This document shows, piece after piece, positions 5,794 to 55,249 of a stretch of DNA of 64,000 nt. Where the stretch lies: sequence record OR192075.1; one strand, written 5' to 3'. The notes beneath the pieces were generated by a model. It was not told the origin of the DNA. It ran no database searches and was given only the letters and a program-made list of their open reading frames with translations. Position numbers and translations under genes: made by a program. Source of the stretch: Escherichia phage MIZ6. Each line of letters starts with the position of its first letter. Within the stretch, counting starts at the first letter, position 1.

Positions 5794-6027
5794 TTATTTT
5801 ACCTCTGGGATATAATCAATTATTAAAGAAAATTCATCTTCTGATACATTATAGCTATGTGAGATTGTACCCGTAAAGACCTCAAGATCCGGTGATTTGA
5901 TATTGCACGGATCGATAATCACCGGAACGCCGCAATCTCTCAAAAATAATTTGGCGAAATACGGCACGAGGTCAGTTTCAAACTCTGCTTCTTCCAGCAA
6001 ACGGGAAATGTTAATTTTCAATCTCAT
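5794..6027 (-). CDS. hypothetical protein
   Basis: 77-aa ORF. Confidence 0.4.
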
Positions 6028-6544
6028 AAAATTGGTCCAAGCTAGGCAATTCCTCGGTCAATACATCTTCAACCTTTGGCGCTTTCGGTTTATTGACCGA
6101 TTCCTCGTAGTTGTTGATTTTATCGTAAATGTCCTGTATGAATGCCTCATCAGCAATCTGGCACATATCAGCGTCGCGTTCGTCATATACATGATGCACA
6201 AAATATTTGTATTTTGCGGCTGTCGCTGTTCTTTCTTTTTTAATGCGCTGTACAAAAGCATTAAAGCACGCTTGCGTGATGTAAGCATGAGGATTTTTAT
6301 ACTTTGTCTCGTCAAAATTAATCAAACCCTTGACCGCCGCTTCGATTCCGTCGTCGATCATTTCTTCGCGCCATGTTTGACTATAACCAGAAAAGTTAAA
6401 ACGACGTGATAGATTTTTAGAGATTTGCATAATTGCTAGGCCGATTTGATCGCTCATTGGAACTTGCCGACCTTCTGCTGCAATTTGTTGTTTCCAACGG
6501 CAAATTTCTTCGTAAAGCTCTTTATTGTTTACATAATCAGACAC
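6011..6544 (-). CDS. 55: late-transcription sigma factor gp55
   Basis: 177 aa; ...[63 protein letters not shown]... closely resembles T4 gp55. Confidence 0.9.
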
Positions 6545-12959: not shown

Positions 12960-12988
12960 ATTATACATTAGCTAATCATGTTGTCAAC
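12960..12988 (-). promoter_or_regulatory. sigma70-like early promoter (cassette with terminator 13005-13024)
   Basis: -35 TTGACA 12983-12988, 17-bp spacer, -10 TATAAT 12960-12965. Confidence 0.6.
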
Positions 12989-18138: not shown

Positions 18139-18432
18139 TTAACCATTAATCTTGTTTTTGACTACAAAGGATCGGAACTCATCAAAGCCACCGATATAAT
18201 CACCATCATAGAAAATCTGCGGCATGGTGGCAATAACTTCTACCCCTGCGCGATCCTGAATGTCGGCAATGATAGAATCAATCTTTACCGGACGACCGTT
18301 TTCGTCCACACCATCATTGACAGGAATATAGATGTAAGGGATCTTACGCGATTCACAAAGGCGCTTTGCATTCTGGCAATACTTACAGTTGTAACCTTCA
18401 AAACCAAAAATTTCTACCATGTTGTACCTCAA
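18139..18432 (-). CDS. nrdC: glutaredoxin/thioredoxin NrdC
   Basis: 97 aa with CKYC redox motif; synteny. Confidence 0.75.
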   Translation of the reverse strand: MRYNMVEIFGFEGYNCKYCQNAKRLCESRKIPYIYIPVNDGVDENGRPVKIDSIIADIQDRAGVEVIATMPQIFYDGDYIGGFDEFRSFVVKNKING

Positions 18433-19241
18433 TCTACGTTAGTTACATAAACTTCTTGTGTATCAGAAGACTTACCACCTGAACGATCTAGGCAATAGGT
18501 CTTATTCAACAGGACGCAGTTTAAATCATTCCGCTTGATAAAGTCAAGAAGATGATCATTTACCTTTCCCTTATGATGTGTGACATTACTGATACCAAAC
18601 TGAAAACCACGCGCCATAATAGATTCTACCCACTGATAGAATTTAATCTCTTCCTCGTCACTCCAGAACTTATTATATTCCGCAGAAGTGATAAGGTACG
18701 GCGGGTCCAAATAAACGAAATCACCTGGCAAGATCTCGATCTCGTCATAACGACCAGACGTAAAACTGATTCGACCGTCTTTGTTTTCTTCCTTAAAATT
18801 CAGGACACGCTCTACCGCGTTTTCGTTAAAAGTCCGGCGACCAAAATTAGCATTAAATTCGCCCTTCCGGTTATGGCGGTTAAGGTTGCTAAAACTGTGC
18901 TGAATCAACACAAACAGCGATAGCGGATCTGGATTCTCGTTATACTTCTTACGGAATGCCATGTAAGCATCTTTATCATCGCGAGACAAACCATTTTCGG
19001 CAATAATCCGCTTGATCGTAGAAACCGGATCAGGACACTCGTCAATGGCCTTGTAAGCATCAATTAAGCGGTGATCATAGTCATTAGCCAGAACATCCCC
19101 TTCGACGTACAGAGACACGCTCAAACCGCCACAAAAGGCATCGACAAAGCGGTTATAGTGCTTAGGGAAATATTTACTAACACCGGGCAATAACTTTTCC
19201 TTATTGCCCGTATAGGGAATTAAACCTAATGCTTTCTTCAT
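18429..19241 (-). CDS. dam: Dam DNA adenine methyltransferase
   Basis: 270 aa; FVDAFCGGLSV SAM-binding motif and DPPY catalytic motif; resembles T4 Dam along its length. Confidence 0.9.
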   Translation of the reverse strand: MKKALGLIPYTGNKEKLLPGVSKYFPKHYNRFVDAFCGGLSVSLYVEGDVLANDYDHRLIDAYKAIDECPDPVSTIKRIIAENGLSRDDKDAYMAFRKKYNENPDPLSLFVLIQHSFSNLNRHNRKGEFNANFGRRTFNENAVERVLNFKEENKDGRISFTSGRYDEIEILPGDFVYLDPPYLITSAEYNKFWSDEEEIKFYQWVESIMARGFQFGISNVTHHKGKVNDHLLDFIKRNDLNCVLLNKTYCLDRSGGKSSDTQEVYVTNVD

Positions 19242-43546: not shown

Positions 43547-43554
43547 TATAAATA
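43547..43554 (+). promoter_or_regulatory. T4-type late promoter (TATAAATA) upstream of gp53
   Basis: TATAAATACATAATAC about 33 nt upstream of gp53 ATG. Confidence 0.6.
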
Positions 43555-51700: not shown

Positions 51701-51804
51701 TAACATTCTCTATGTTCCGTGAACTTGTAGATAAACGGTTGAAGGATAATATAGGGAATCCACGCGATCCGAAGAATCCGACACAGAGGAAAATTAATGG
51801 CTAA
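48718..51804 (+). CDS. 7: gp7 baseplate wedge protein
   Basis: 1028 aa (T4 gp7 ~1032 aa); synteny. Confidence 0.85.
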   Translation: MIKAPSVTSLTIEKLSANQAYITWDDVGENFFYFVELAETRTRDGEIIPVDELSWVNLGYTAEQNWFEDKNLFPEYYYKFRVAVAAEGFEQSKWVETEEFQTFKTNAYNFSMMREFNLANEFIKEKFTYDNREYVKFNTDLIQASLMKEDFVFSPEYANMTNISNYIVVDENFHEIQDHIEKVCTDINRTMLAEMNGVLYLFERFQPIVKVSNDKGQSWKAYKAFNDRVGNPVSRTCVYQSKTTTYVLGYDRIFYGRQASDTRWSADDVRFSDDTITFAKVGDENDLGFDVEVFGVFSRLTGDTTKYAEAMACSDDYLWVGAKDVIRRIRLKNTPVDTVQGSPTFGEKIFDPDVIRVTGNDKAVIQKMDVIDGKLLVFVTGEVKQLYQDPTKPENVVPSDDAGVYLIGSDGLSFQRVFGNTPQEREYIQHGFSNMSTNGDEVFISHYNHHFESILPDPETAEKYELGEAVKYSQEPTYLTDKKIHQTTFRASYDDLRIWELGPQAYYNEADYTWMRRNGVRVWITNDNRPLVVYPEVIYTQEVDTSGILDQNRVNREVYDKGTVTCYLNNVKFEGFKQYASGVMFHKNTGEIIGFYQFNYRVRDQVGVYWKPTNVAFVAELQNQVREVPWVPVHYDREQDPDLRPLLNKMTPDSFLLENENFRKFSEYYLQFLSDGSGTYYNKLKNLIKNKYPREKDAYEYLWSEMNKRNIYADKNKRDAVVRFFESRKSDFYSTKGVEASYKFLFKLLYNEDVEIEVESQAGLEYDIVVSSTNIDEDIVGRTIYTPTGRANVTYLEREYEGGRLRWRVTIHNLIGRFEEGQVIKSEKTAFEGMILVGVRGKELLSSSIDYINRSRSQYTMKIKSALPVSRYANDVMRFVHPVGFGFIGVTLLTMFINSGLSMKHTETIIQSLKNYKFDSGLPSVYPDRVADLDVDGNIKKDPLTGKALYLTSPLIGEEFPVPPEYDQENSELFHGLKASERRFAMSPLFDQSAVTFSMFRELVDKRLKDNIGNPRDPKNPTQRKING

Positions 51805-52792
51805 TGAAAATAGTGTGATCTATCGCTCAATCATTACTAGTAAATTCAGAACGGAAAAACTTCTGAATTTCTATAATTCTGTAGGCGATGAGGCAAATCA
51901 AATTACAATTTATGGAACGTTTGGACGTTCGGAGCCGTGGTCAGAAAACGAAAAAGAGGTGGGCTTTGCCCCACCTTATCCGACCGATTCAACGGCTGGT
52001 GTTGTTGACATGTGGACCCATATGATGGGGGCGGTTAAGATTAACAAATCACTTCTTGATGCGGTTATCCCTCGTAAAGATTGGGGTGATACCGGACAGG
52101 ATAACCCGCGCACATTCTTTATCAATGACATTGTTGTTGTCAACTCAGCACCATATAACAGAACTGATGTTGGTAGCGGCTGGATGGTGTATCGCGTAAC
52201 CGATGTTCCTGATCGCGGTTACTGCTCGATTTCAAGCATTGACGCTAAAGTAGAGTGTTTGAAGTTGGGCGGAAAGTGGACCCCCACTCATGAATCAATT
52301 GCGCCACCTGTAGGAAAGGGCGATTCTATTGATATGGGTGATGGGTATCGTTGGGAATATCTGTACACAATTCCACCTGATGCGGCGATCAACCGTTGCA
52401 CCAATGAACATATTGTTGTACCGTTCCCCGATGAACTGCGACAAGATCCGGCGCGTTGGGGTTATGACAATGTGATCACCTGGTATAATGACTATAATCT
52501 GCTTTATCGGCTGAAAGTAGTAACTTTGCGTTTTCAGGCTTATATGGACTCTGCGCAATTCCCAACTACCGCGTTAGTGGGTAATACTGGTTTCCGTCAG
52601 TTAAGCATTATCCTTAACCCATTGGAAAAGAAAGCACGCCCTAGCGATCCAGACGTTAAAGCGGTCAAAGATAAGTACCGACCGCAAGACTTAGAGCCAC
52701 ACTCAGGCGAAATGATCTACATGGAAAACCGACAACCTATCGTTCGGTCATTAGATCAAACAGAACTTGTTTCTGTATTGTTTGAGTTCTAA
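51797..52792 (+). CDS. 8: gp8 baseplate wedge protein
   Basis: 331 aa; synteny. Confidence 0.85.
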   Translation: MANENSVIYRSIITSKFRTEKLLNFYNSVGDEANQITIYGTFGRSEPWSENEKEVGFAPPYPTDSTAGVVDMWTHMMGAVKINKSLLDAVIPRKDWGDTGQDNPRTFFINDIVVVNSAPYNRTDVGSGWMVYRVTDVPDRGYCSISSIDAKVECLKLGGKWTPTHESIAPPVGKGDSIDMGDGYRWEYLYTIPPDAAINRCTNEHIVVPFPDELRQDPARWGYDNVITWYNDYNLLYRLKVVTLRFQAYMDSAQFPTTALVGNTGFRQLSIILNPLEKKARPSDPDVKAVKDKYRPQDLEPHSGEMIYMENRQPIVRSLDQTELVSVLFEF

Positions 52793-52807
52793 GTGTATGA
52801 TTTAAAA

Positions 52808-52827
52808 GCCAATTCGAGAGAGTTGGC
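52808..52827 (+). terminator. terminator hairpin after gp8
   Basis: GCCAATTC-GAGA-GAGTTGGC followed by TTTTT. Confidence 0.55.
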
Positions 52828-52844
52828 TTTTTCTATTTTGGGTG

Positions 52845-52872
52845 TTGACAATCTTGTCTGATAAGGTATAAT
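52845..52872 (+). promoter_or_regulatory. sigma70-like early-type promoter on plus strand, inside the late module
   Basis: -35 TTGACA 52845-52850, 16-bp spacer, -10 TATAAT 52867-52872; preceded by terminator 52808-52827; drives the three-gene MTase cassette. Confidence 0.6.
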
Positions 52873-52901
52873 GATCACATCTAAACAACGGAGGATAAAT
52901 T

Positions 52902-53159
52902 ATGGCACGTCGTAAATTTACAGATAATTGTGAAGCAATTCAGGTATCCCCTTGCGGTTGGGATGTGATCGCGAACGGTGAAAAGATCGGAGAGATCATC
53001 GATCATACTCATTCATCACTAGCCGATTACACCGATGAACTATGGGAGGGTATCAACTTCATGAATGACACTAAACGATTCAAGACTATCGACGAAGCTA
53101 TCTATTTTGTGTATAATCCAACTTTCGGTATGTGGGGTAATAGAAAATGGCACGCGTAA
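52902..53159 (+). CDS. hypothetical protein, first gene of inserted cassette
   Basis: 85 aa starting MARRKF; GGAGGA RBS; downstream of sigma70-like promoter. Confidence 0.55.
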   Translation: MARRKFTDNCEAIQVSPCGWDVIANGEKIGEIIDHTHSSLADYTDELWEGINFMNDTKRFKTIDEAIYFVYNPTFGMWGNRKWHA

Positions 53160-53479
53160 ATATTAAATTGCATTACACAATGAATAAAGCTAAGTTCCCA
53201 ATGCAAAAGCATTACTATGGTCTACGTGCACAAGATCCTAAACTCTATGGTACTCATTGGTTTTGTAAACATGATAACCAATGGCACACATACGAAGAAA
53301 TGCACGAGATGATGAAACAGGGTATTGAATTTAGTTATTCTAATTATGACCATCGTATAACTTGCATTCGAAAATTGAAACGATGGATTCGTAAGAATCC
53401 GCAATTTAAAAACTTTGTGTTCTTTATGTCTCATGTTTATTTGGGACATAGCGTTACCGTCACAGCAAAGGTTAAATAA
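53147..53479 (+). CDS. hypothetical protein, second gene of inserted cassette
   Basis: 110 aa starting MARVNI; overlaps neighbours. Confidence 0.55.
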   Translation: MARVNIKLHYTMNKAKFPMQKHYYGLRAQDPKLYGTHWFCKHDNQWHTYEEMHEMMKQGIEFSYSNYDHRITCIRKLKRWIRKNPQFKNFVFFMSHVYLGHSVTVTAKVK

Positions 53480-54318
53480 TGGCACGACTTTCTAAACAAG
53501 AACAAAAATTACACGATCGGGTGATGGAGTTGATTAATTCAGATCGCCCATTGACATATGAAGAAAAAGAATTTTGCTATAATAACTATCATGGCGATGG
53601 TCTAGGCGGTTCAGGTGCATTCTTTACCCCAGAAGGGCTTGCATGGGATTTTACCATCGATGCACATTGCACAGGAAAAGTATTAGATCTTTGTGCTGGG
53701 ATCGGTCGCTTATCTTTTTGTATGTTACATCGTTGTAAGCCAGAAAAGATCGTATGCGTCGAACTCAATCCAGAATTTGCGCGGATTGGCAAGAGACTAT
53801 TACCGGAGGCAGAATGGATCACCAGCGATGTATTCGAATTTGAGTCAAACGAAAAATTCGATGTGGTGATCAGCAATCCACCTTTCGGGAAAATCAATAC
53901 AACCAACACAAAGGATGTATTTGAGTACACTGGCGGCGAATTTGAATTTAAGGTTATGACATTAGGCCAGAAGTTTGCCGATGTTGGCTATTTTATTGTT
54001 CCTGTGGGTTCCGCTGGTTTTGCTTATTCCGGCAGACCTTATTATGACGGGACCATGAAGTCTAATAAATATCTAAAATGGAGCAAACAAACTGGTTTGG
54101 TGACTTATGCCGGATGTGGGATCGATACATCAATCTATCGCGATGAATGGCACAGTACCAACGTTTTAACAGAAGTGGTTGAGGTTCGGTATTACGAGAA
54201 AGAAGCCGTAGAAGCGCCTAAATCACGCCCTAACGAACAAATAGAAGAAAGTAAGGAGATTACCTTACCGAAACAGGAAAGCGAGTCTGGGACGCTCTCA
54301 GATTTGTTTGACATTTAA
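53479..54318 (+). CDS. N6-adenine-type (gamma-class) methyltransferase
   Basis: 279 aa; motif order AFFTP - VLDLCAGIG - VISNPPFG. Confidence 0.75.
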   Translation: MARLSKQEQKLHDRVMELINSDRPLTYEEKEFCYNNYHGDGLGGSGAFFTPEGLAWDFTIDAHCTGKVLDLCAGIGRLSFCMLHRCKPEKIVCVELNPEFARIGKRLLPEAEWITSDVFEFESNEKFDVVISNPPFGKINTTNTKDVFEYTGGEFEFKVMTLGQKFADVGYFIVPVGSAGFAYSGRPYYDGTMKSNKYLKWSKQTGLVTYAGCGIDTSIYRDEWHSTNVLTEVVEVRYYEKEAVEAPKSRPNEQIEESKEITLPKQESESGTLSDLFDI

Positions 54319-54324
54319 TTATAA

Positions 54325-54342
54325 GCCGTCCTTGTGGGCGGC
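54325..54342 (+). terminator. terminator hairpin after MTase cassette
   Basis: GCCGTCC-TTGT-GGGCGGC followed by T7. Confidence 0.55.
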
Positions 54343-54359
54343 TTTTTTTGTATGTATTT

Positions 54360-54367
54360 TATAAATA
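54360..54367 (+). promoter_or_regulatory. T4-type late promoter (TATAAATA) upstream of gp9
   Basis: TATAAATAATAC about 28 nt upstream of gp9 ATG, directly after terminator 54325-54342. Confidence 0.6.
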
Positions 54368-54394: not shown

Positions 54395-55249
54395 ATGGCA
54401 CAAGTTCCAAAGAAAAGAATAGACACAGGTACTGTCGGCAATCCATCGACTGGCGATATCTTATATGATGGCGGCAATAAAATTAACGATAACTTTGATT
54501 CAATATATGACGCATTTGCTGATCAGCGGTTTAAAGACGTAGACCACGGCGTGGGAAGAATGGTTATTCATGCAACCGGATACTATCAGAAGCATCCACG
54601 TCAAAGCTACGCTGGTTCCGCTGTTGAGATTGGGAGTCTACACGATATCGATACAACTCAAGGCGCACTTATTGCTATTCTACCTAAAGCAAAGGTCGGT
54701 GAGGGTGTTGTATTCATAAATAGTAACGGTAGCCTTTCAACGACGACACCGCTCAATATTCGAACTCAAGCAGGTGATTCTATTAGCGGTTATTCCGGTG
54801 ATGCTACAATAACACAACCATTTTCAAAAGTCACTGTTTGGTGTACTGCCGTTGAAGGTAGTCGCGTAACATGGCGATTGGGTATCGAAAGTATGTTTAC
54901 CGATACAACAACGCCATTAGATAAAACAGTTAACGTAACTGGAGTAGCAACAAACGTTGCTATTGCCGCAAAAACAGAATACGTTTCCATCAAATTATTA
55001 ACTACCGCTAGCAATACATCCGGTTCAAAAATGCGTTCAAGTGAAACGCTACTGATGATTGATTCTAAAGCCGGAAAAGTTTATGCGACGGAATATGCAG
55101 TTTTGCAGAAGACAGAAGATGAACTATACACGGTTCGTTATTTCATCGGTTCCGGCGATAAAGTATATGCAGAGTATAAGGCTACTGGCGAAAATATTCG
55201 TTTAGCAGTTAAAGCCGTAGACACTATTAAAATCGGGGTTGCTACATGA
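54395..55249 (+). CDS. 9: gp9 baseplate wedge / long-tail-fiber socket
   Basis: 284 aa; ..RIDTGTVGNPSTGDILYDGGNKINDNFDSIYDAF.. resembles T4 gp9. Confidence 0.85.
   Translation: MAQVPKKRIDTGTVGNPSTGDILYDGGNKINDNFDSIYDAFADQRFKDVDHGVGRMVIHATGYYQKHPRQSYAGSAVEIGSLHDIDTTQGALIAILPKAKVGEGVVFINSNGSLSTTTPLNIRTQAGDSISGYSGDATITQPFSKVTVWCTAVEGSRVTWRLGIESMFTDTTTPLDKTVNVTGVATNVAIAAKTEYVSIKLLTTASNTSGSKMRSSETLLMIDSKAGKVYATEYAVLQKTEDELYTVRYFIGSGDKVYAEYKATGENIRLAVKAVDTIKIGVAT

Follow-up and report, generated by a model that had tools for sequence, protein, structure and literature searches.

Escherichia phage MIZ6, a member of the Krischvirus (RB49-like) group, carries between its baseplate genes gp8 and gp9 a small early-type transcription unit, the third gene of which codes for a 279-aa orphan amino-methyltransferase with a catalytic NPPF motif. 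This unit was analyzed within a stretch of 64 kb of the phage genome (record OR192075.1, from here on the window), a region that is 100% identical to Escherichia phage MIZ3 and corresponds to the final 64 kb of the MIZ3 record. The methyltransferase ends in a short peptide that is nearly the same as the C-terminus of the DNA polymerase (gp43) of the same phage, and such a tail is found on its relatives in enterobacterial T4-like phages but not on the bacterial homologues. On the strength of its sequence, we think that the enzyme is probably a DNA adenine methyltransferase tethered to the sliding clamp and coupled to replication, produced from an early unit of the kind known as PeSL (early promoters joined to stem-loops, see below) and shielding the phage DNA from restriction. 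Such a tail on an uncharacterized phage methyltransferase appears to be undescribed so far.

The methyltransferase finishes in GTLSDLFDI (with the preceding residues, KQESESGTLSDLFDI) and the gp43 of the same phage in ASLTDLFDI, the last five residues being identical and six of the last eight matching. Their genes share exactly the same 14 terminal nt, and 21 of the final 27 nt match, which is compatible with capture of the polymerase tail. The C-terminal peptide of gp43 is the established epitope for binding the gp45 sliding clamp in T4 and RB69, where gp43 ends in ASLDFLFG and KKASLFDMFDF, respectively. The epitopes of gp43, gp55, and gp33 are functionally interchangeable, the one of gp55 hangs on a divergent and flexible linker, and gp55 and gp33 use the clamps to couple late transcription to replication (PMC2988020). 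For the T4 DNA ligase, a loop that resembles the gp43 tail led to the prediction of an interaction with gp45, later confirmed by size-exclusion chromatography, isothermal titration calorimetry, and crystallography (PMC6212786). As in these ligands, the tail of the methyltransferase is a short hydrophobic/acidic peptide, which follows a linker as in gp55; it is almost identical to the gp43 epitope of its own phage, and its binding to the clamp is predicted here from this resemblance. The AlphaFold model is confident over the catalytic body (mean predicted local distance difference test, pLDDT, of 83) and falls below 50 for residues 245-279. In the literature searched no methyltransferase was reported among the gp45 ligands, nor did we find there a methyltransferase from a phage or bacterium described as working with a sliding clamp. 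The gp45 gene lies mostly outside the window, and the polymerase-like tail had no place in the account of this locus given by a previous sequence-only reading.

Considering the whole genome, for which MIZ3 (163,664 bp) provided 947 six-frame open reading frames (ORFs) of at least 40 aa, endings of this kind are rare. The pattern [ST]L..[LMF][FY] within the last 12 residues was found only in gp43, gp55, and the methyltransferase, and DLFDI only in gp43 and the methyltransferase. The broader ending [LF]D[IV] appeared in five of the 947 ORFs, namely gp43, gp33 (PF16805), the DNA ligase (PF01068), a DprA-like protein, and the methyltransferase, all five of them real genes devoted to DNA transactions. 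Judging by these endings, [LF]D[IV] may be a Krischvirus-specific code for the clients of the gp45 clamp. Three of these genes are located outside the window in MIZ3: the ligase (L032, 38754-40250, minus strand, ending in KEVFDV), the DprA-like gene (L032, 11868-12455, minus strand, ending in SDLSWLDI), and gp33 (L033, 11212-11466, minus strand). Unlike the C-terminal [LF]D[IV] of the Krischvirus ligase, T4 ligase uses an internal loop. We regard as evenly balanced the case for a broader proposal, according to which the replisome clamp gp45 of T4-like enterobacterial phages would hold a DNA adenine methyltransferase by a polymerase-type C-terminal peptide, making methylation replication-coupled and possibly processive, with the Krischvirus tail being part of a wider [LF]D[IV] "toolbelt" code that includes polymerase, gp33, ligase, and the DprA-like protein.

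The tail is also a property of a defined part of the family. An extension of at least 12 residues was present in 13 of the 109 homologues that could be anchored, all of them phage-type, and in none of the other 96, which are bacterial-type. In every one of the 13 the C-terminus is a conserved hydrophobic/aromatic peptide (LSDLFDI, LTDLFDI, SLSMFDI, LDFVDFSEI, or [LN]F[TD]FxIE), preceded by a linker of variable length (17-47 residues). Three uncultured relatives (L013, L016, and L017) provide the tails TLTDLFDI, SLSMFDI, and TLDFVDFSEI on bodies that are 62-70% identical and with different linkers; that the motif is kept in such diverged relatives argues for a function of the tail despite the possibility of recombination. 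In RB43, KP15, and Phynn, the core [LMFN]F[TDG][FIWD] was found in the last nine residues of gp43 and the methyltransferase only, among real genes. The homologues of Aeromonas phage AS-zj, phiM12, and the jumbo phage GAP32 have no tail, and the one of a Vibrio phage has an unrelated extension.

Regarding the enzyme itself, the three motifs singled out by the sequence-only reading (FFTP, DLCAGIG, and NPPF) are indeed present, invariant in 30 homologues, and follow the linear order of the gamma type, with a conserved C-terminal subdomain after them (residues ~140-240). Both the motif I for binding S-adenosylmethionine (AdoMet; acidic-x-G-x-G) on a Rossmann fold and the motif IV (N/D)PP(Y/F) are found, and NPPF aligns with the NPPF/NPPY of PH1948, RsmC, and TaqI. 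The best Pfam match is the generic MTS (PF05175, E=1e-9), Eco57I (PF07669) scores 27.8 bits, above its cutoff of 25.3, and PHROGs assigns the protein to phrog_3820, "DNA methyltransferase" (E=3e-117). A member of the family, RB49ORF143w, was listed already in 2006 with a match to a "methyltransferase small domain" (PMC1524935). In structure alignments, HsdM, MmeI, and lmo1582 superpose over 204-214 residues, including the N-terminal helices, FFTP, and the extra C-terminal subdomain, and METTL5/PH1948 only over the Rossmann core of ~170 residues; the protein is not the compact, Rossmann-only enzyme of ~200 aa typical of METTL5/PH1948. These structural relatives act on the exocyclic N6 of adenine or are amino-methyltransferases of related classes, so that the assignment to this class of chemistry is well supported. 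The fold alone, as modeled, would not separate DNA from rRNA as the substrate, and the longer alignments with DNA enzymes (N-terminal helices, FFTP) tilt the balance toward DNA.

One different explanation is that the protein methylates RNA (N6-methyladenine or N2-methylguanine, m6A/m2G, like METTL5/PH1948 or RsmC) or the glutamine of a protein (like PrmC), acting on host ribosomes, tRNA, or release factors as part of host takeover, with the tail serving some other purpose. The sequence-only reading had itself mentioned an RNA or protein methyltransferase as the outcome that would count against it, and with this the fold is compatible, although the clamp-binding-like tail, which matches that of the DNA polymerase, argues against it. 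In addition, the NCBIfam scores are far below the cutoffs, with 37.4 bits for PrmC (TIGR03534, cutoff 199.1), 16.2 for TIGR00536 (cutoff 115.5), and 29 for RsmC (cutoff 295), the alignment with METTL5/PH1948 is the shorter one, the family is confined to phages and the ends of prophages, and in RB43/KP15-type phages the gene belongs to the replication cluster. An RNA or protein substrate is therefore unlikely in our opinion. The public label "release factor glutamine methyltransferase," in particular, is unsupported, the PrmC score being far below the equivalog cutoff, and the annotations that carry it are corrected here.

Several points weigh against a clamp-tethered enzyme with a protective role. 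Besides the enzyme described here the phage has Dam and a third annotated methyltransferase, and why it would need one more against restriction is not evident. Pfam N6_Mtase (PF02384) stays below its cutoff (17.5 versus 20.4), and no experimental work on any family member was found in the literature searched, subscription-only papers being outside the search. With the gp43 tail of the same phages, the RB43/KP15-type tail (LFTFxIE) has no more than a core of 3-4 residues in common, and a co-variation of the tail with gp43 across genera, considered and discarded, is weak, with only the DLF/LF core in common. The C-terminal motifs were defined after the tails had been seen, which makes the rarity statistics partly post hoc, and the 14 identical terminal nucleotides could stem from recombination and not from selection. 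These last features would be seen as well if the likeness of the tail carried no clamp function, having arisen when gene 43 and the methyltransferase gene recombined at their 3' ends (a recent patch transfer is expected to leave such an identity) or being just a chance hydrophobic C-terminus, in which case we would be dealing with an ordinary orphan DNA methyltransferase that diffuses freely. We consider this quite improbable, since the motif persists where the bodies are only 62-70% identical and the linkers differ, many phages keep the RB43-type tail behind linkers that vary, the 96 bacterial-type homologues have no tail, and genome-wide the motif is confined to known clamp ligands and DNA enzymes.

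The family to which the clamp-tethered candidate belongs is a phage-borne orphan, confined to phages and prophages, and not a housekeeping enzyme. Leaving aside the Krischvirus-type proteins, the nearest among the best 120 of 1,729 homologues (E<=1e-5) come from Citrobacter, Salmonella, Enterobacter, and Klebsiella; they are 235-245 aa long and 54-61% identical. In the contexts examined, the bacterial genes are found in terminal accessory regions of prophages or in islands of small ORFs, with no recognizable nuclease beside them that could act as a restriction partner. Neither is there a restriction endonuclease or specificity subunit next to the methyltransferase in the phage cassette, only two small ORFans, and a restriction-modification system was discarded as the nature of the locus, no cognate partner having appeared in the phage cassette or in the prophage contexts. 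Genes of ~255 aa recur upstream of the bacterial homologues, unannotated and with 14-24% mutual identity, and their consensus sequence suggests that the product may be membrane-anchored. The tail-less homologues of Salmonella (L021-L023), Enterobacter (L024-L026), and Citrobacter (L004-L007) occupy the chromosome-proximal end of a prophage or island; the one of Salmonella comes after tail and terminase genes of the T7 type, pointing to a T7-like prophage integrated beside mipA/gapA. The papers about DNA modification in KP15 and KP27 list only Dam and Dcm and leave the restriction resistance of KP27 unexplained (PMC3620542, PMC5219037); KP15_25 (L010, 20001-20777), the KP15 homologue of our methyltransferase, was overlooked in both.

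Compared with the known gamma-type N6-adenine DNA methyltransferases (HsdM, MmeI, the Eco57I family, M.TaqI, or CamA), the phage enzyme is much smaller, with a body of ~240 aa, and lacks both a recognizable target-recognition domain of those families and a partner S or R subunit. The METTL5/PH1948 enzymes (~200 aa), on the other hand, are without its extra N-terminal helices and C-terminal subdomain, METTL5 needs TRMT112, and neither the phage-borne distribution nor the polymerase-like tail is shared with them.

The features of the locus are collected in Table 1. Every element that the sequence-only reading had described between gp8 and gp9 was found in its place or a few bases off, the two terminators (read as 52808-52827 and 54325-54342) being slightly longer than proposed, and the ORF coordinates agree with three overlapping genes of 85, 110, and 279 aa beginning with Met-Ala-Arg. 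The overlaps are of 13 nt (85-aa/110-aa) and 1 nt (110-aa/279-aa). The same layout of terminator, promoter, three coding sequences, and terminator is already annotated in the public record of GEC-3S. The three genes all start with ATGGCACG; the start MA(R/K) is conserved in the methyltransferase family and MA(R/H)VNIKLHY in the 110-aa family, even in the Vequintavirus FV3, and gp8, gp9, and a gp12-like gene likewise begin with MA. This common start is probably a preference in translation initiation and not a sign of relatedness.

Table 1. Coordinates in the window of the gp8-gp9 insert, the parts of the methyltransferase, and two genes used for comparison.
Feature	Position	Strand	Remarks
Baseplate wedge gene gp8	51797-52792	+	PF09215, E=8e-144; last gene of the late unit starting at 43547 (TATAAATA)
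Intrinsic terminator/stem-loop, ends the gp53-gp8 late transcript	52804-52831	+	12-bp stem and T-run; kept in L013, L016, L017
Early sigma-70 promoter, TTGACA-16-TATAAT	52845-52872	+	12/12 matches; annotated as promoter in GEC-3S
85-aa acidic ORFan (phrog_16603)	52902-53159	+	PHROG E=6e-61
110-aa basic ORFan (phrog_12630), conserved Cys/His residues	53147-53479	+	PHROG E=2e-68
279-aa orphan NPPF amino-methyltransferase (RB49ORF143w family, phrog_3820)	53479-54318	+	
Catalytic body	residues 1-244 of the 279-aa protein	+	
FFTP, motif X-like, N-terminal to motif I	residues 48-51; 53620-53631	+	invariant in 30 homologues
DLCAGIG, AdoMet-binding motif I	residues 70-76; 53686-53706	+	L71-G76 invariant in 30 homologues
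NPPF, catalytic motif IV	residues 133-136; 53875-53886	+	invariant in 30 homologues
Acidic low-complexity linker, predicted disordered	residues 245-271; 54211-54291	+	pLDDT <50
TLSDLFDI, putative gp45 sliding-clamp-binding motif	residues 272-279; 54292-54315	+	
Intrinsic terminator closing the early unit	54323-54344	+	9-bp stem, 6 GC pairs, T-run; kept in relatives
Late promoter TATAAATA, restarts late transcription for gp9-gp10 and downstream genes	54360-54367	+	kept in L013, L016, L017
Baseplate/tail-fibre connector gene gp9	54395-55249	+	PF07880, E=1e-40
Late sigma factor gp55, comparison clamp-binding epitope at the C-terminus	6011-6544	-	annotated late sigma factor in MIZ3
Dam-type (D12 class) DNA adenine methyltransferase	18429-19241	-	PF02086, E=1.6e-30; C-terminus ...EVYVTNVD, without clamp-like tail

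The transcriptional signals support a self-contained early-type (sigma-70) unit that splits a late operon. There are 26 sites in the window with at least 11 of 12 matches to TTGACA-N16-18-TATAAT, of which 25 are on the minus strand, the promoter of the cassette being the only one on the plus strand. Its extended context (TTTTGGGTGTTGACA...TATAATG.TCACATC.AA) is common to the minus-strand sites at 12987, 23613, 26031, and 38987, and confirms that it belongs to the same family as the minus-strand early promoters, as had been proposed. The late promoter TATAAATA has only two copies on the plus strand of the window, one before gp53 (43547), heading the gp53-gp8 operon, and the other before gp9 (54360).

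Stem-loops joined to near-perfect sigma-70 promoters that have an AT-rich upstream region, the PeSLs, are known from RB49 and phi1, where they flank ORFan cassettes (Arbiol et al. 2010, PMC2839356; Comeau et al. 2014, PMC4122927); they keep early transcription from spilling into late virion genes and have been proposed as mediators of modular shuffling (PMC2839356, PMC4122927), and in one of the published subclasses the stem-loop lies upstream of the -35 box (PMC2839356). The gp8-gp9 cassette has a promoter with 12 of 12 matches, a stem-loop 14 nt upstream of the -35 box, and non-core ORFs flanked by it, and corresponds to this published type of element (PMC2839356), its regulatory anatomy being of a known kind, something that the sequence-only reading had overlooked. 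In both cases, and in the same phage group, a sigma-70 promoter and a stem-loop or terminator bracket non-core genes and isolate early ORFan expression from the downstream late virion genes. The present unit differs from the PeSLs of RB49 and phi1 in being located inside the conserved baseplate module and not in a hyperplastic region, in being fixed across the genus, and in its stem-loop, an AAAAGCC...GGCTTTT terminator instead of the G(n)-loop-C(n) type. It has a single PeSL-type promoter, its downstream end being a plain terminator followed by the late promoter. The locus is not mentioned in PMC2839356 or PMC4122927. Many of the minus-strand early promoters have inverted repeats across the spacer or the -10 box (e.g., GGGAGTAT..ATACTCCC or GGGGATCGGTGATCCCC), matching subclasses of Arbiol et al. 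2010; examples are found at 15491-15464, 17637-17609, 20862-20834, 21537-21509, 36030-36002, and 36723-36695 (minus strand).

As the sequence-only reading had assumed, gp8 and gp9 are adjacent in other genera of Straboviridae (Tulanevirus Aes012 and Slopekvirus Miro, each with 9 nt between the genes, and Tequatrovirus RB18, with 63 nt), so that the unit is an insertion relative to them. A 2.6-kb query was covered at least to 80% in 57 of 58 matching phage records, all of them Krischvirus (RB49, Phi1, JSE, GEC-3S, and others). The insert is present in all Krischvirus genomes of the collection (about 57-58), and is therefore not recent. As a compositional sign of recent transfer, the small-ORF region was examined and dismissed, its 35-38% GC being within the range seen elsewhere in the operon. 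The idea of a horizontal acquisition remains likely, then, but as an old event and with a composition that is not clearly foreign. In the three uncultured relatives the methyltransferase (62-70% identical) is found at the same gp8-gp9 junction, alone in L013 and L017 and preceded in L016 by a 154-aa ORF that is unrelated to the 85-aa or 110-aa protein. All three keep the order of terminator, TTGAC(A/T) promoter, genes, terminator, and TATAAATA. Regulation is of the early type everywhere we looked; the same genes under late-type regulation in all relatives, which had been named as evidence that would speak against an early module, were not what we found. The variable content upstream of the methyltransferase fits PeSL shuffling and does not prove it. 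RB43, KP15, and Phynn have the methyltransferase but not the small genes, and carry it between the helicase gene 41 and the primase gene 61; this position in the replication cluster of RB43/KP15-type phages fits a replication-coupled role.

The two small genes have a history of their own. The 85-aa protein was found only in Krischvirus and three Vequintavirus records, its gene being absent from L013 and L017, and its family forms a single cluster among 5.8 billion in a homologue search. The 110-aa protein is found in 88 phage records, ~30 of which are rV5-like phages; its family gave five clusters in the homologue search and four matches among 1.84 billion representatives by exhaustive HMMER, and its AlphaFold2 model (pLDDT 62) is too poor for a fold search. 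Neither protein has a Pfam, NCBIfam, or informative PHROG match. In FV3 both genes are adjacent (L001, 2510-3330) among unrelated small early ORFs, with the methyltransferase not beside them, and other rV5-like phages have the 110-aa gene alone. Within Krischvirus the 110-aa gene exists as two alleles (at least 98% and ~72% aa identity) between 85-aa and methyltransferase genes that are at least 95% identical, a split that amounts to a localized replacement inside the cassette (53147-53479). The 110-aa gene also matches three "Campylobacter phage" records (e.g., C9 and A112b; 128-135 kb) with 58% identity (MG065661.1, MG065682.1), which have the appearance of rV5-like coliphages and could be mislabeled or contaminants.

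The sequence-only reading had taken the three genes as one anti-restriction module, with the 85-aa and 110-aa proteins as partners of the methyltransferase, for which functions in specificity, regulation, or inhibition would come into question. They do share one promoter and are co-transcribed, their overlapping stops and starts suggest translational coupling, and they are conserved together in nearly all Krischvirus genomes. However, the methyltransferase is alone at the junction in L013 and L017 and next to an unrelated 154-aa ORF in L016, RB43, KP15, Phynn, and the prophages have it but not the small genes, the small genes live among unrelated small ORFs in Vequintavirus, and the 110-aa gene swaps alleles independently. 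We consider such a partnership very unlikely. From these separate distributions, the "three-gene module" reads as one conserved methyltransferase gene with exchangeable upstream ORFans, the 85-aa and 110-aa genes appearing as separately mobile accessory ORFans and not as obligate partners. Such a patchy, separable distribution, together with allelic replacement, is what one typically sees in accessory early genes that are reshuffled through recombination of the PeSL type. An anti-restriction role, the other half of that claim, is plausible for the methyltransferase.

The picture that we favor is the following. A PeSL-type early unit is lodged between gp8 and gp9, with the downstream late promoter restoring gp9 expression. 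The conserved core of the locus is a single gene, the orphan NPPF amino-methyltransferase, with the 85-aa and 110-aa accessory ORFans sharing its promoter. In the enterobacterial T4-like phages the enzyme has acquired a flexible acidic linker and a short hydrophobic/acidic peptide. Made early, it would dock by this tail on the gp45 clamps loaded on replicating phage DNA and, from the clamp, methylate adenines at N6 in the newly made DNA at some target sequence, which would keep the fast-replicating genome protected from host restriction. The anatomy and conservation of the unit, the class of the methyltransferase, and the identity and rarity of its tail are seen directly in the sequences, and from these we infer the clamp binding, DNA as the substrate, and the anti-restriction role. 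Anti-restriction seems the likely role because canonical cytosines have been reported for Krischvirus TB34 (PMC13390438). In Krischvirus SAP, which is 99.96% identical to TB34, an unexplained modification of cytosine has been described that TB34 does not have, with no genes of a known pathway (2026, PMC13390438).

T4 Dam and other phage anti-restriction orphan methyltransferases are, as the enzyme of the cassette probably is, early-expressed and phage-encoded adenine methyltransferases involved in the arms race with restriction-modification. Dam, however, is of the D12 class (alpha type), targets GATC, and has no clamp-like tail; the ORF at 18429-19241 is of this class (PF02086), and the third gene of the cassette is a different enzyme, as had been noted from the sequence. 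The third gene annotated "DNA methyltransferase" lies outside the window, in MIZ3 at 30915-31586 (minus strand, L032), and encodes 223 aa, with the motif FAFPPC and no Pfam match. The presence of Dam leaves room for a clamp-associated DNA methyltransferase that is regulatory and not protective, for instance by labeling replicated DNA for packaging, recombination, or late transcription, or by vying with gp55 and gp33 for the clamps; its tail is of the same class as those of gp55 and gp33, which couple late transcription to replication (PMC2988020). Yet our data give no sign of methylation-dependent regulation in T4-like phages, and the tail-less homologues in the terminal accessory regions of prophages fit better a protective or epigenetic orphan methyltransferase, making a purely regulatory role highly improbable to us.

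The closest functional analogue of the gp45-tethered enzyme proposed here is the DNMT1-PCNA pair of eukaryotes, in which a clamp-binding motif directs a DNA methyltransferase to newly replicated DNA (PMC9690074). The analogy is only functional, as DNMT1 is unrelated, carries out C5-cytosine maintenance methylation, and uses a different clamp and motif. Replication-coupled methylation by way of a sliding clamp is established in eukaryotes and, in the literature searched, has not been described for phages or bacteria; a clamp-tethered phage methyltransferase would be, if true, the first viral or prokaryotic counterpart of this coupling. For the cassette, it follows from the above that the 85-aa and 110-aa genes are better studied as independent mobile ORFans than as partners of the methyltransferase. 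Should the tail bind gp45, a DNA-modifying enzyme would join the T4-type clamp toolbelt, a simple sequence rule would be available for other clamp clients in phage genomes, and we would have an explanation of how these phages, apparently without hypermodified cytosines, manage to methylate the new DNA of hundreds of genome copies within minutes, before restriction can act on it.

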